Below are positions 55,907 to 63,941 of a stretch of 64,000 nucleotides of DNA, in pieces (position 1 is the stretch's first letter; each line of letters opens with the position of its first letter). The notes below the pieces were generated by a model. That model had not been told where the DNA came from. It searched no databases and worked only from the letters and a program-made list of their open reading frames with translations. A program made the position numbers and the translations under genes. This DNA comes from Dictyostelium discoideum (lineage: Eukaryota). The stretch is from NCBI GenBank assembly GCA_000004695.1, contig CM000153.2, forward strand, positions 3,840,001 to 3,904,000. The letters are read 5' to 3'.

Positions 55907-56288
55907 ACAAAAATAAAAATAAAAAAATAAAAAATAAAAAATAAAAAAACAAAAAAAAAAAAAAAAAAAAAAAAGAAAAAAAAGAAAAAAAAAAAAGAAA
56001 AAAAAAAGAAAGAAAAAAATCAATTAAATCAAAAGAATAATATTTATTAATTTAAAATTTCCTTTTTTTTTAATATTTTTTTTAATTGTATAATAATTTA
56101 TAAATAATAATATAATAAAAAAAATAAAAAAAAATTAATTCAAACACTTATCAAATTTCTTTCTTGTTTCTTTCCAAATTTTTTTTTTTCTTATTAAACA
56201 AAATATAAATATGATTTTTAAAATTATATTTATATTTTGTTTAATAAGAATATTTTTAAAATCATATTTATATTTTGTTAAATTGTAA

Positions 56289-56340
56289 AATAAACAATTT
56301 CTATTGGATATCCAATAGAAATTGTTTATTTTACAATTAA
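56289..56340. repeat. Perfect 52-bp palindrome (26-bp arms) 'gtaaaataaacaatttctattggata|tccaatagaaattgtttattttac', preceded by a second nested inverted repeat (56201..56296)
   Basis: Read directly: 56289..56314 is the exact reverse complement of 56315..56340. Upstream, 56201..56234 is a near-perfect inverted copy of about 56262..56296. It lies between the TTP-like gene's 3' end and paralogue A of the VIT-vWA array, and is absent from the equivalent positions upstream of paralogues B and C. Confidence 0.8.
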
Positions 56341-56572
56341 AAAAAAAAAAAAAAATTTAAAAATAATTTATTCAAAGAAAAAAAAAAAAAAACACATCGA
56401 TAAAGAAATTTGGCAAGAGTGTTCTTGAAATGAGAAATTAAAAAGAAATTATTTTTTATTTTTTTATTTTTTTTATTTTTTTTTTTTTATTATTTTTAAT
56501 TATTCTTGAAATTTTTTATTTATTAATCTATTTATTTATTTATTTATTTATTTGTTTTTTATTTATTTAAAA

Positions 56573-59795: not shown

Positions 59796-60845
59796 ATGTT
59801 GCCAAGTATAAAAAATGTTTTTTTTTTCAGGCACCACAACAACAACTACAACAACAACTGCAACAACCACAACACCAACAACAACAGTATCAAATTCAGC
59901 TATTAAAAGAGACATTGGAAATATAAATGATTATAGGAATGCAAACTATTTTAATTATTATAGAAAATTAGAGAATAAATATAACTACCTTAGCGACACC
60001 TTTGGTTTAAAAACTATATCAAACAATGAAACATTCAAATTAATTGATTTTACAATTGATTCAGAAATGAATAATACTTGTATAACATCAATTTGGAATC
60101 AAAAGTATTCAAATAATTCAAGTACACCAGTTGAGGGTATTTATAAACCAAGTATTAGAAAATATTTCCTATGATATGGGAAAAACAAAAAATATTCTTG
60201 ATGATCTTTCCAAGGTAATTTCAAAACAAAGTTGTATGCTAGATACATTGCATGATGCTAGCATTGAAGCAAGTACCTTGGGTATAAATGCAAAGCCTCA
60301 AAAATCAAACATCTTTTCAAAAATTACATCATTCTTTTCATCACCATCTAAAGTTTCGATTAGTAAATCCAATTTTGATGGTGATATCAAATCAGAAGAA
60401 AGAAATAATAATAATAATAATAATAATAATAATAATAATAATAATAATAATAATAATAATAATAATAATAATAATAATAATAATAATAATAATAATAATA
60501 ATAATAATAATAATAATAATAATAATAATAATATTAAAAAGAGAACTAATAGTATAAATAATAATAGTGACAGTTTATTAAAATTAATTAAACTTCAAAA
60601 GGCAAATGGATCATGGAGTTCACCATTTAATGAATTCAAAATTAATTTATCAAAGAAACCATCAAACACTGATAACGATCACTTTAATAGTAATCAACAA
60701 GATTCTTAATGATTATCCAACTCAACAATCTCAATATGACCTTGTAATTCAAAAGGCTTCAAAATGGGTAAAACAACAATTAACAAGATTAAACATTCCA
60801 AATCAATATGACTCATTATTAGCTACTTCGAAATTACATATTTAA
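59796..60845 (+). pseudogene. Internally deleted, frameshifted pseudogene copy (paralogue B) of the VIT+vWA gene
   Basis: ATG 59796 'MLPSIKNVFFF' is homologous to copies A and C, but a T10 run (T9 in A and C) shifts the frame. ORF 59815..60174 matches only the first ~115 aa of copy A. The whole VIT+vWA core (~aa 120-690 of A) is missing. Sequence resumes in other frames (ORFs 60131..60709 and 60606..60845) matching copy A's C-terminal part ('SCMLDTLHDASIEASTLGINAKPQKSNIFSKITSFFSSPS...SDSLLKLIKLQKANGSWSSPF...QKASKWVKQQLTRLNIP') with a further frameshift near 60680. Confidence 0.65.
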
Positions 60846-61445
60846 TATTTTTTAAATATTGAATAAAGAAAAAAACTTGTATAAAAGGTAAGGGAGGTCG
60901 GGTGTAAAAATTTCAACATTAAAGTGGTAATTTTATGAGGTACTGATGGGTTTGTCACCTCTTTTTTTTATTTTTTTTTTCACTTTTTTTTTTATTTTCT
61001 GTGTGGCTCCCCTTAACAAAAGTCAAAACAAAAATTTAAAATAAATTTTATAACTTTTTTTTATTTTTTTTTTTTAAACTAATTTTTTATTTGTGTAAAA
61101 AATTAAAAAAATGTTTTTAATTTAAATTACACTCAAATTAACTTTGTAAATTTAATTATTATATTTAAATAAAAGCAGTTTTTACAATTTAATAAATTCA
61201 TTGAAATCATTTAATTTCATTCAAACACCAAGTTTTTTATTTCAAAGAATTTTTTTTTTTGAATCACAAAAAATTAATAACCCCATCAATTTTTTTTTTT
61301 TTCTCAATTTTTTTTTTTTTTTTTTTTTCTTATCAAAATAAAAAAAAATAAATATAAATAAAAAAAATCTTTTTTGGATATATTTATATTATTTTAATTT
61401 TTCTATTTATTTGTTTTTGTGCATGAATTTATATTAAATAACAAA

Positions 61446-63941
61446 ATGTTACAAAGTTTAAAAAATGTTTTTTTTTCAGAAACCACAACTACAACAACAA
61501 CATCAACTACAACACCAGTATCAAATTCAGCTATTAAAAGATACATTGGCAATATAAATGATTATAAGAATGCAAACTATTTTAATTATTATAGAATTTT
61601 GGAGAATAAATATGACTACCTTAGGGACACCTTTGGTTTAAAAACTTTTTCAAACAATGAAACATTCAAATTAATTGATTTTACAATTGATTCAGAAATG
61701 AATAATACTTGTATAACATCAATTTGGAATCAAAAGTATTCAAATAATTCAAGTATACCAGTTGAGGGTATTTATAAAATTCCATTAGCACCATATAGTG
61801 TCATTTCAGGATTCACAGTAGAATATCAAGATAAAGTTTTCATCGGTAAAATTAAATCAAAAGAAAAAGCACAAAATCAATACTCTGATTCAATCGCAAG
61901 TGGTGGCCAAGCATTCCTCGCAGAGAAAACTCAAGATGGTCAATTCTCATTTAGAATCGGTAATTTACCACCAAATGAAAATGTTACAATTCATTTAACA
62001 ATTATTTCAGGAGTTTGTCCTCATTTATCAAGTTTGCAAAATTGTTTCCATCGTTTCTTATTCCCAAATTATTCATTTAATTTCCAATTCAATTTAAATA
62101 TTAAATTAACATTACCAATTAAAACTATTGAATTATTATATTATCCAAATAGAGAAATTAAATTCAAAGAAAACTCTAATAATAAAGAAGCAACTCTTAC
62201 ATTCTCTTCAAAAAACGGTATTGATAGTGATATTGTCTGTATAGTTGAACCAGAGAATGATATTGAAAGACCACAATCAATTATTGAACATTCAAAATTA
62301 AATAATACATATGCAGTCAGTGTCAACTTTACACCATCATTCAGTCATTTAACATCGGATGATGTAAATCAAAAAAGTGAATTTATATTCCTCATCGATT
62401 GTTCAGGAAGTATGAGTGGTGAACCAATTAAAAAAGCAAAAAGAGCTTTAGAAATTATTATTAGAAGTTTAAATGAAAATTGTAAGTTTAATATTTATTG
62501 TTTCGGTAGTAGATTTACAAAAGCATTCGACAATTCAAAAATGTACAATGATGAAACATTAGCTCAAATTTCAGGATATGTTGAAAAAATTGATGCAGAC
62601 TTAGGAGGTACAGAATTATTACCACCAATCCGTGATATCCTTTCCACTGAATCAGATTTCGAATATCCAAGACAATTATTCATTCTTACAGATGGCGAAG
62701 TCAGTGAAAGAGATAGTTTAATAAACTATGTAGCAACAGAATCAAATAACACTAGAATCTTTACATATGGTATTGGAAATAGTGTAGATACAGAATTAGT
62801 AATTGGTTTATCAAAAGCATGTAAAGGTTATTATGAAATGATTAAAGATAACTCAAATTTCGAAGAACAAGTAATGAAATTAGTTTCAATTGCATTCGAA
62901 CCAACACTTTCAAATATTAAAGTAGATTGGGGTACAGAATTACAAATTGAACAAGGTCCAACCAAAATTCGTCCACTTTATTCAGGTGAGACTTTAATTG
63001 TTTATGCATTATTAAAAGATAATAAAATTCCTCAATCAACAGTACAAGTTTCATTAATTGGTGATGGACCAACTGGTTCAAAATTAGAATTCCCAATTAC
63101 ATTAGATTTCTCAAAAACAATTGATTATGAAAATAATTCAGTTCATACATTAGCAGCATTTAACATTATAAAAGATTTAGAAGAAGTTGAAAGAAAAGGA
63201 AATCATTCAAACAATAGAGACAGAATAGAAGAGTTAGGAAAAAGCTATGGATTAATATCAAAGTATACTTCATATATTGTCACTGCAGCTTCTGAACAAG
63301 TAACTGAAGAAACAATGAAAACTTTAAATATTATCCAAACACCAACAACAACAACAACAACATCACACTCAAATCGTAGAAGAGAAGAAGCAGATCATAC
63401 TATGAATCAAACTTTGCTTAAAAATTGTGCTGTTGTTGATGATTTATTTGAAAGTTGTGAAATGTTATCAGAAACCTCAATTAAATTTGAATGTAATAGA
63501 GTGTACAAAAAAATTCCTTCCTCTTTATCAAAGATTTTTTCATTCTTTTCATCACTATCCACATCTTCCTCTGTGAGATCAGAAGTTGTATCCAATTTTG
63601 ATAATGATATAGAATCAGAGGAAAAGAAAAATAATAGTATTAATAATAATAGTGATAGTTTATTAAAATTAATTAAACTTCAAAAAGCCAATGGATCATG
63701 GAGTTCACCATTTAGTGAATTCAAAATTGATTTATCAAAGAAACCATCAAACATTGATAGCGATGATATTTGGATCACTTTAATAGTAATCAACAAGATT
63801 CTTAATGATTATCCAACTCAACAATCTCAATATGACCTTGTAATTCAAAAGGCTTCAAAATGGGTAAAACAACAATTAACAAGATTAAACATTCCAAATC
63901 AATATGGCTCATTATTAGCTACTTCAAAATTACATATTTAA
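61446..63941 (+). CDS. VIT + von Willebrand factor A domain protein, paralogue C of the tandem array
   Basis: ORF 61419..63941; first ATG 61446 'MLQSLKNVFFSE'. Over 95% nucleotide identity to copy A across the VIT-vWA core (e.g. 'FIFLIDCSGSMSGEPIKKAKRALEIIIRSLNENCKFNIYCFGSRF' identical). Shorter Thr-rich N-terminal stretch, a different linker, and no poly-N. Confidence 0.8.
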   Translation: MLQSLKNVFFSETTTTTTTSTTTPVSNSAIKRYIGNINDYKNANYFNYYRILENKYDYLRDTFGLKTFSNNETFKLIDFTIDSEMNNTCITSIWNQKYSNNSSIPVEGIYKIPLAPYSVISGFTVEYQDKVFIGKIKSKEKAQNQYSDSIASGGQAFLAEKTQDGQFSFRIGNLPPNENVTIHLTIISGVCPHLSSLQNCFHRFLFPNYSFNFQFNLNIKLTLPIKTIELLYYPNREIKFKENSNNKEATLTFSSKNGIDSDIVCIVEPENDIERPQSIIEHSKLNNTYAVSVNFTPSFSHLTSDDVNQKSEFIFLIDCSGSMSGEPIKKAKRALEIIIRSLNENCKFNIYCFGSRFTKAFDNSKMYNDETLAQISGYVEKIDADLGGTELLPPIRDILSTESDFEYPRQLFILTDGEVSERDSLINYVATESNNTRIFTYGIGNSVDTELVIGLSKACKGYYEMIKDNSNFEEQVMKLVSIAFEPTLSNIKVDWGTELQIEQGPTKIRPLYSGETLIVYALLKDNKIPQSTVQVSLIGDGPTGSKLEFPITLDFSKTIDYENNSVHTLAAFNIIKDLEEVERKGNHSNNRDRIEELGKSYGLISKYTSYIVTAASEQVTEETMKTLNIIQTPTTTTTTSHSNRRREEADHTMNQTLLKNCAVVDDLFESCEMLSETSIKFECNRVYKKIPSSLSKIFSFFSSLSTSSSVRSEVVSNFDNDIESEEKKNNSINNNSDSLLKLIKLQKANGSWSSPFSEFKIDLSKKPSNIDSDDIWITLIVINKILNDYPTQQSQYDLVIQKASKWVKQQLTRLNIPNQYGSLLATSKLHI

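Follow-up and report, generated by a model that had tools for sequence, protein, structure and literature searches.

A tandem pair of VIT+vWA genes in Dictyostelium discoideum that appears to evolve in concert, with a chimeric pseudogene between its members

The closest described relatives of the genes considered here encode proteins in which a VIT domain is followed by a vWA domain. VWA5A (BCSC-1)-type proteins, including DDB_G0292016, combine the VIT domain with a vWA domain carrying a complete metal-ion-dependent adhesion site (MIDAS) and with a beta-sandwich, and have an LQxADGSW motif in their helical C-terminal domain; as in the proteins described below, their length is ~800-900 aa, and they show no further domains and no evident signal peptide. 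The inter-alpha-trypsin inhibitor heavy chains (ITIHs) are secreted and become ester-linked to chondroitin sulphate after C-terminal cleavage. Tandem duplicates that evolve in concert are also well described, for example the human gamma-globin genes HBG1/HBG2, and Drosophila duplicates provide an example of concerted evolution by interlocus gene conversion (PMC2588116). The window analysed in this work is a stretch of 64,000 nucleotides (nt) of Dictyostelium discoideum DNA (contig CM000153.2 of assembly GCA_000004695.1, positions 3,840,001 to 3,904,000 of the forward strand) with a G+C content of ~22%. It contains three VIT+vWA-related elements arranged head-to-tail on the + strand, which are referred to as gene A, fragment B and gene C. 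Judged from their sequences, A and C appear to be an old tandem pair under concerted evolution from which an internal linker escapes, and B is a chimera of a C-type 5′ part and an A-type 3′ part. This account as a whole, an old pair kept alike by conversion together with a hybrid left by unequal exchange, is in our judgement probable.

Gene A (56573-59326, + strand) is a single-exon VIT+vWA gene of 917 aa with an A-type linker; its open reading frame (ORF) is intact from the ATG at 56573, its domains are recognised by Pfam, and it is identical in an independent assembly. Gene C (61446-63941, + strand), also single-exon with an intact ORF and Pfam matches, encodes 831 aa, and its protein exactly matches DDB_G0285981 of D. 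discoideum AX4 (Q54MG1, XP_637953.1). An exact protein look-up with the gene A sequence gave no match; gene A is probably DDB_G0285975. Fragment B (59796-60845, + strand) is an internally deleted pseudogene. The ORFs, the Pfam matches and the lesions of B agree with an earlier interpretation of the same DNA, here called the sequence-only reading, which had recognised two intact tandem paralogues and one internally deleted pseudogene. It had further proposed three units of ~4.9 kb each, which cannot fit a span of 7.7 kb. The start-to-start spacing is 3,223 nt from A to B and 1,650 nt from B to C, and the proposed unit length corresponds to the A-to-C spacing alone (4,873 nt).

The actual internal tandem repeat was located by self-BLAST at 58624-61778 (+ strand), with a repeat length of 1.5-1.65 kb and repeat spacings of 1,518-1,650 nt. 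Copy 1 (58624-60146, + strand) consists of the 3′ part of A, a spacer and the 5′ part of B, and copy 2 (60147-61778, + strand) consists of the 3′ part of B, a spacer and the 5′ part of C. In the alignments, 58624-59362 matches 60142-60881 with 89.6% identity, and 59373-60147 matches 61018-61778 with 84.6% identity. The boundary between the two repeat copies (60146/60147) is the same position as the "deletion" point of B. The A-B spacer (59327-59795, unstranded) is one copy of the spacer that ancestrally separated A and C, and the B-C spacer (60846-61445, unstranded) represents a second copy with a private 136-nt insertion. The flank relations described from the sequence alone were all confirmed by alignment: A and B have homologous 3′ flanks (59327-59362 versus 60846-60881), B and C have homologous 5′ flanks (59373-59795, 423 nt, versus 61018-61445, ~81%), and the 5′ flank of gene A is unique, showing no relation beyond ~60-90 low-complexity bases. 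The 136-nt insertion (60882-61017, 32% G+C) is missing from the A-B spacer and from the other genomes, and no other full-length match to it was found in the window or in the compared loci. No further array copies were found in the window or in the 10 kb downstream.

A and C share 96.6% identity over 1,888 nt (56689-58575 versus 61481-63368), which bears out the value of more than 95% given earlier for the VIT-vWA core, and 93.8% over the last 357 nt (59009-59365 versus 63624-63980). The identity is distributed in steps, with ~90% in 56689-56988, 97.7% in 56989-58575, ~59% in the linker and 97.9% in the coding sequence of the C-terminal domain. The homogenised core of A (56989-58575, + strand), covering the VIT and vWA domains and the following beta-sandwich, has its partner at 61781-63368 in C, from which it differs at 36 of 1,587 nt, and identical runs extend up to 318 bases. 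The A-type linker (58576-58888, + strand) is predicted to be disordered, and at ~59% identity it is essentially unalignable to the C-type linker (63369-63623, + strand), so that the distinct linker noticed earlier in C is a real feature. The C-terminal helical domain of A with its LQKANGSW motif (59037-59326, + strand) forms the second homogenised tract, being 97.9% identical to 63652-63941 of C. An observation apart is that the step from ~90% to ~98% identity at 56986-56989 lies only a few bases from the point at which the homology of B to the N-terminus ends (60146/60147). The idea that the step at ~56989 was caused by B, whose junction falls at 56986, was rejected because the same step is found in genomes without B; since the N-terminal block of low identity is also present in those genomes, the proximity is not causal and looks coincidental.

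Microsatellites account for further differences among the three elements. An (ACA/ACC)n microsatellite in a predicted-disordered segment encodes the Thr/Pro tract; it was detected with Tandem Repeats Finder (TRF) at 56612-56726 in A (+ strand, period 9/12, score 160) and at 59836-59886 in B (+ strand). The tract was counted at 39, 18 and 12 residues in A, B and C, in place of the ~50, 25 and 14 residues estimated before. An (AAT)49 microsatellite (58889-59036, + strand, 49.3 copies by TRF) encodes an Asn-rich run of 46 residues in A, and an (AAT)54 microsatellite (60404-60566, + strand, TRF) encodes an Asn run of 43 residues in B, while gene C has no AAT run. The insert of 50 Asn residues that had been assigned to A is thus present, at 46 residues, but is not a property of A alone.

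The history of the pair was addressed with five further long-read genomes: two diverged isolates labelled D. discoideum (L002 and L006), D. cf. discoideum (L003), D. citrinum (L004) and D. dimigraforme (L005). The order CCCH-zinc-finger gene, copy 1, copy 2 is present in all five, and a TMEM164-like gene follows the pair in L003, L004 and L006. In the core, paralogues within one genome are 97.8, 98.0, 98.9, 98.7 and 98.8% identical at the nucleotide level, compared with 86-96% between lineages. For both the core and the C-terminal domain, within-genome identity of the paralogues lies at 97-99% in every genome. A codon alignment showed genome-specific substitutions common to both paralogues in the core and the C-terminal domain, and two types tracking position in the linker. 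The linker of A is 58.9% identical to that of C, versus 91.6% to copy 1 of L002 and 79.0% to copy 1 of L003; the linker of C is 90.5, 71.4 and 60.5% identical to that of copy 2 of L002, L003 and D. citrinum, respectively. Synonymous divergence (dS) and the ratio of non-synonymous to synonymous divergence (dN/dS) were obtained as Nei-Gojobori estimates. Core dS is 0.014-0.072 for paralogues and 0.13-0.43 for orthologues, for instance 0.070 for A and C against 0.43 for the AX4-D. citrinum orthologues, and paralogue dS in the linker is 0.74-0.93. The dN/dS ratio is 0.13-0.19 in the core (0.13-0.18 for the core of gene A versus its orthologues), which indicates that both A and C are functional, and ~0.6-1.2 in the linker, with a value of about 1 for the A-type linker.

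Neighbour-joining (NJ) trees with bootstrap gave the same pattern. In the core tree the paralogues group by genome with bootstrap values of 96-100% (A+C clade, 96%), and in the tree of the C-terminal domain the A+C clade has 94%; in the linker tree the A-type and C-type sequences of AX4, L002, L006 and L003 form clades by position with 100% each. Over the N-terminal 86 codons, A and C are 96.1% and 94.2% identical to their respective orthologues and 91.9% to each other. In 40-codon blocks, paralogue identity alternates between 100% and 91-95%, and this pattern differs among AX4, L002 and L006; such lineage-specific patches are the mark that discrete tracts of conversion leave. For codons 271-310, copies 1 and 2 of L002 are identical (100%) and copy 1 of L002 differs from copy 1 of L006 by 8.3%, which indicates a discrete, recent conversion tract. 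Collectively, A and C can be regarded as an old tandem pair under concerted evolution with an escaping linker, because the two-copy layout is present in five related genomes and the sequences cluster by genome in the core and by position in the linker. Of the two explanations offered by the sequence-only reading, recent duplication or gene conversion, the latter is upheld by these groupings and the former is refuted by the presence of the pair in five genomes.

A plausible mechanism would be recurrent interlocus gene conversion in short, patchy tracts, which would keep two folded parts, the VIT-vWA-beta-sandwich core and the C-terminal helical domain of ~95 residues, 97-100% identical within each genome. 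The divergence of the linker (~59% identity) would block heteroduplex formation, so that two position-specific types could persist, and towards the edge of homology, in the first ~300 nt of the gene, homogenisation would be partial as the tracts fade. Slippage in (ACA/ACC)n and (AAT)n would produce the length differences of the Thr/Pro and Asn tracts. Some points weigh against this account. Conversion as the homogenising process is deduced from patterns. The orthology of the D. citrinum linker has a bootstrap of ~50%, although identities and common motifs agree with it, and that of the D. dimigraforme linker is not demonstrable; independent duplications may have occurred in the D. citrinum and D. 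dimigraforme lineages. For fragment B, which was found in none of the five related genomes (L002-L006), the linker nevertheless looks older than the split between AX4 and L002, so that secondary loss or lineage sorting is required; moreover, the modest C-like signal of its N-terminus (14 versus 6 sites) could be partly due to later conversion between B and C.

Other explanations of the array were considered. The 96.6% DNA identity over 1.9 kb and a core dS of just 0.07 could suggest that a duplication within the D. discoideum lineage gave rise to A and C recently, making conversion unnecessary. This seems very improbable, as the two-copy layout occurs in five other genomes, the divergence of the A and C linkers has reached saturation (dS 0.74) and each linker has its positional orthologue in other lineages, and the N-terminal 86 codons of the two genes resemble those of their orthologues (96.1% and 94.2%) more closely than one another (91.9%). 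An assembly artefact, in which the three-copy layout or the near-identity of A and C would reflect collapse or mis-joining in AT-rich repeats, might be suspected in a region of 22% G+C that is rich in microsatellites and in a reference built from short clones. It can be set aside almost entirely: the independent Nanopore+Illumina assembly has the same sequence over 56000-63944 (PMC12745789), and the mismatches at 64 positions between the A and C cores show that they are not a collapsed duplicate. A different question is whether selection holds the linker types apart, each marking a sub-functionalised isoform with partners specific to its linker, beyond a passive block of heteroduplex formation. 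Both types are kept by position in at least three or four lineages amid homogenised surroundings, short motifs such as SKI(T/F)SFFSS and SNFDxDIxSEE are conserved in both, and the core of both genes is under purifying selection. However, linker dN/dS between orthologues (~0.8-2.0) is not distinguishable from neutral, the linker is predicted to be disordered, and passive escape of a diverged segment is a simpler and well-known outcome, so selection of this kind is unlikely but deserves some weight. Conversion between two old copies, with passive escape of the linker, is therefore the explanation that we prefer.

Fragment B keeps the N-terminal ~110 and the C-terminal ~230 codons and lacks 1,637 nt, comprising most of the VIT and all of the vWA coding sequence. 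Its 5′ part (59796-60146, + strand), assigned by identity and site patterns, has an N-terminus of the C type, which carries a +1 T frameshift and a Thr tract of 18 residues; its 3′ part (60147-60845, + strand), which is out of frame with the 5′ part, has an A-type linker, the (AAT)54 run and a C-terminal domain with an 11-bp deletion. B reads in three further frames after the original ATG. Three lesions break the frame: an additional T in the run of T that follows the start codon (T10 versus T9 in A and C), the out-of-frame junction at 60146/60147, where the microhomology is just AAA, and the 11-bp deletion at ~60677 with GAT repeats on either side. By its frame-breaking lesions and the duplicated spacer on both sides, B belongs to the unprocessed (duplicated) pseudogenes. 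A 288-aa gene annotated over B in the independent assembly (L001:8370-9400, corresponding to window 59815-60845) is very likely an annotation artefact, because such a model is possible solely by splicing around the frameshifts and the junction.

The composition of B is mixed. Its N-terminal coding part is 95.5% identical to C versus 92.1% to A, and the three-way sites there divide into 14 with B=C, 6 with A=B and 4 specific to B. Its linker is 87% identical to that of A and 85.5% to that of L002 copy 1, and gave no match to the C-type linker. The 5′ flank and N-terminus are thus C-type, and the linker, poly-Asn run and 3′ flank are A-type, and on these alignments B can be described as a C-5′/A-3′ chimera, equivalent to a tandem duplication of 1.5-1.65 kb spanning the spacer. 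As to the exchange mechanism and the order of events, B would have arisen in the middle position when C, on the 5′ side, and A, on the 3′ side, exchanged unequally on misaligned chromatids, giving the arrangement A - [C5′::A3′] - C with the spacer duplicated. In a one-step route, B would have been truncated from birth by a single out-of-register exchange duplicating 1.5-1.65 kb; in a two-step route, an in-register exchange would have produced a full-length hybrid that later suffered the 1,637-nt deletion. B would afterwards have decayed neutrally. We give the two routes about equal weight; parsimony favours the one-step origin, and the full third copy of D. citrinum and a 220-nt vWA relic in L002 and L006 show that the two-step kind of change also operates at this locus.

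In the linker of B, the informative sites group A with L002 copy 1 at five positions, B with L002 copy 1 at three and B with A at none, and B keeps the ancestral motif NSINNNSD. Because its linker shares no derived site with A that L002 copy 1 lacks, and has this ancestral motif, B probably predates the separation of AX4 and L002, with later loss or a failure to reach fixation in the other lineage, although these counts are small. The B-specific substitutions show synonymous to non-synonymous ratios of 2:2 and 2:4, which are too few to judge past selection on B. Alternatively, B could be the remnant of an independent complete third unit, a whole copy of A or C whose core was later lost, since three full copies exist in D. 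citrinum and the 220-nt vWA relic follows copy 2 in L002 and L006, so that third copies evidently arise and decay at the locus. A whole copy of A, however, should have brought the 5′ flank or the N-terminus of the A type, and a whole copy of C should have brought the C-type linker and no AAT run. With a C-like 5′ flank and N-terminus, an A-like linker, AAT run and 3′ flank, and its sole discontinuity at the junction 60146/60147, B makes this alternative improbable, and the origin from an unequal exchange between C and A remains the preferred one.

Copy number at the locus also varies in the related genomes. D. citrinum has three full-length copies of 849, 869 and 785 aa (L004:10001-18997), in the order A-type linker, C-type linker and short aberrant linker. 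This order is unlike the product expected of an unequal crossover between A and C, and the copy number at this locus has therefore changed independently. Directly downstream of copy 2, a relic of the vWA core with ~83% identity to it is found in L002 (L002:12713-12937, ~220 nt) and, in shorter form, in L006 (L006:12733-12810). The relic is found neither in AX4 nor in the independent assembly L001, and is probably what remains of a former third copy. Hypervariability of the locus within the species, as might be proposed from L002 and L006, was rejected in view of their flanks, which are also ~4-12% diverged; isolates such as these are treated as diverged or cryptic lineages in PMC12745789.

The protein of gene A has a VIT domain at residues 105-212, N-terminal to a VWA_3 domain at residues 339-491. 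The Pfam E-values are 6e-30 in A and 1e-28 in C for VIT (PF08487), and 6e-28 and 1e-27, respectively, for VWA_3 (PF13768). A complete MIDAS is present in C, formed by DCSGS at 318-322, T389 and D416, and the same motifs are present in A; residues D318, S320, S322, T389 and D416 are invariant in 25 homologues. The AlphaFold2 model of C (predicted template modelling score 0.76) is confident at residues 40-615 and 736-831 and has a per-residue confidence score (pLDDT) below 50 at residues 1-32 and 616-735, and the C-terminal domain is modelled as helical with pLDDT above 84. According to this model, the homogenised parts correspond to folded domains, and the variable parts are predicted to be disordered and carry the microsatellites. 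The C-terminal helical domain of ~95 residues has its LQxADGSW motif in 94 of 121 family members, bacterial ones included. No Pfam model matches this domain, and its single sequence gave no match in the PDB. A profile of 39 sequences showed a weak likeness to the QW-type repeats of lanosterol synthase and squalene-hopene cyclase and to the thioester domain of complement C4. The match of this profile to residues 1574-1643 of PARP4, the vault-binding region, was non-significant (E 0.13), and an identification with the PARP4 vault-binding domain was rejected as evidence, the terpene cyclase QW repeats scoring better, and is retained as a weak lead.

By inspection, no signal peptide was recognised, a hydrophobic core being absent from the N-terminus MLQSLKNVFFSD(T)n. 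By homology to their relatives, A and C are inferred to be cytosolic, MIDAS-bearing vWA proteins that would bind partners through a metal ion. It is possible to go further and suppose that the linker types are distinct functional modules kept apart by selection, with conversion homogenising the core and the C-terminal domain, the pair acting as two adaptors with one binding core and different partner or regulatory specificity, perhaps accessory to a large cytoplasmic assembly. The latter suggestion is made because the closest solved relatives, PARP4 and a trypanosome axonemal VWFA protein, are found in giant assemblies, and Dictyostelium has vaults; taken together, this functional proposal is speculative and has a small chance of being correct.

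The array is a real feature of the locus. The same region in an independent Nanopore+Illumina assembly (L001, GCA_054883475.1; project and methods in PMC12745789) is identical base for base over 56000-63944, that is, the whole array, which settles the long-read check that had been suggested for the copy number and shows that assembly has not produced the array artificially. The window and L001 differ in 66 alignment columns, all of them outside the array, in homopolymers and low-complexity intergenic DNA. Single-base differences, most of them changes to or from T, are clustered at 51517-51737 and 53340-53445 in low-complexity intergenic DNA, with the genes identical, and more likely reflect polishing or assembly error in one of the assemblies than true variation. 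The neighbours of the array are a CCCH zinc-finger gene on one side and a TMEM164-like gene on the other. The former (54503-55906, + strand, 467 aa) is of the tandem CCCH, tristetraprolin-like kind, lies directly upstream of the pair and is its conserved left neighbour in all six genomes; AAT repeats in it encode an Asn run of ~50 residues. No tRNA was detected in a scan of 50-64 kb.

A full-text literature search returned no papers on DDB_G0285981 or DDB_G0285975, and one passing mention only for five paralogue identifiers; by this search of identifiers, concerted evolution of the gene pair was not found in the literature. The genes and mechanisms are of known kinds, and the locus, an annotated gene pair of a model organism, serves mainly as a cleanly resolved and well-controlled illustration of them and less as a discovery. 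For this amoeba, for which new long-read genomes are available, it suggests that interlocus conversion can hold two folded domains near-identical for longer than the species radiation, with the intervening disordered linker drifting to saturation. For annotators, the high identity of A and C is uninformative on the age of the duplication and the 288-aa model spanning B should not be trusted, and B offers a worked case in which an apparent "deleted third copy" would be the footprint of an unequal exchange.

Compared with known proteins, A and C share just 25-30% identity with VWA5A-like proteins of animals and ~55% with their next paralogue in D. discoideum, and they differ from the VWA5A type in their lineage-specific Thr/Pro and Asn microsatellite tracts and long disordered linker. 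They share the fold of the VIT-vWA core with ITIH1 and ITIH4 (PDB 6FPY, 9C4F; Foldseek E 7e-32 to 6FPY, profile E 1e-44 of the core to ITIH4), but unlike the ITIHs they have no signal peptide by inspection and a different C-terminal domain. By profile, the best match among solved chains is the vault poly-ADP-ribose polymerase PARP4, whose residues 597-1205 align to the entire VIT-vWA-beta-sandwich core (E 7e-111); unlike PARP4, A and C lack BRCT and PARP catalytic domains by Pfam and begin ~60-90 residues before the VIT domain. By fold, as judged by Foldseek, the nearest solved structures are ITIH1 and the VWFA protein of the Trypanosoma brucei axonemal doublet (9E5C). With mucin-like secreted proteins built of PTS repeats, A and C have in common a Thr/Pro tract (12-39 residues), but again no signal peptide by inspection, and their relatives are of the intracellular type, so that the mucin-like, rapidly evolving N-terminus suggested by the sequence-only reading is not sustained.

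The arrangement of B has the same topology as anti-Lepore haemoglobin and the red/green opsin hybrids, upstream - [downstream-5′::upstream-3′] - downstream, with the spacer duplicated. B differs from these hybrids in that it is not full-length, lacking 1,637 nt, and in having an out-of-frame junction and two further frame-breaking lesions. As in known concerted duplicates, the paralogues A and C are closer within a genome than orthologues are between species, they show mosaic tracts, and homogenisation is weaker at the edges of homology and ends at a diverged segment. What sets A and C apart from the known concerted pairs is that two homogenised folded domains flank a disordered linker of two positional types.

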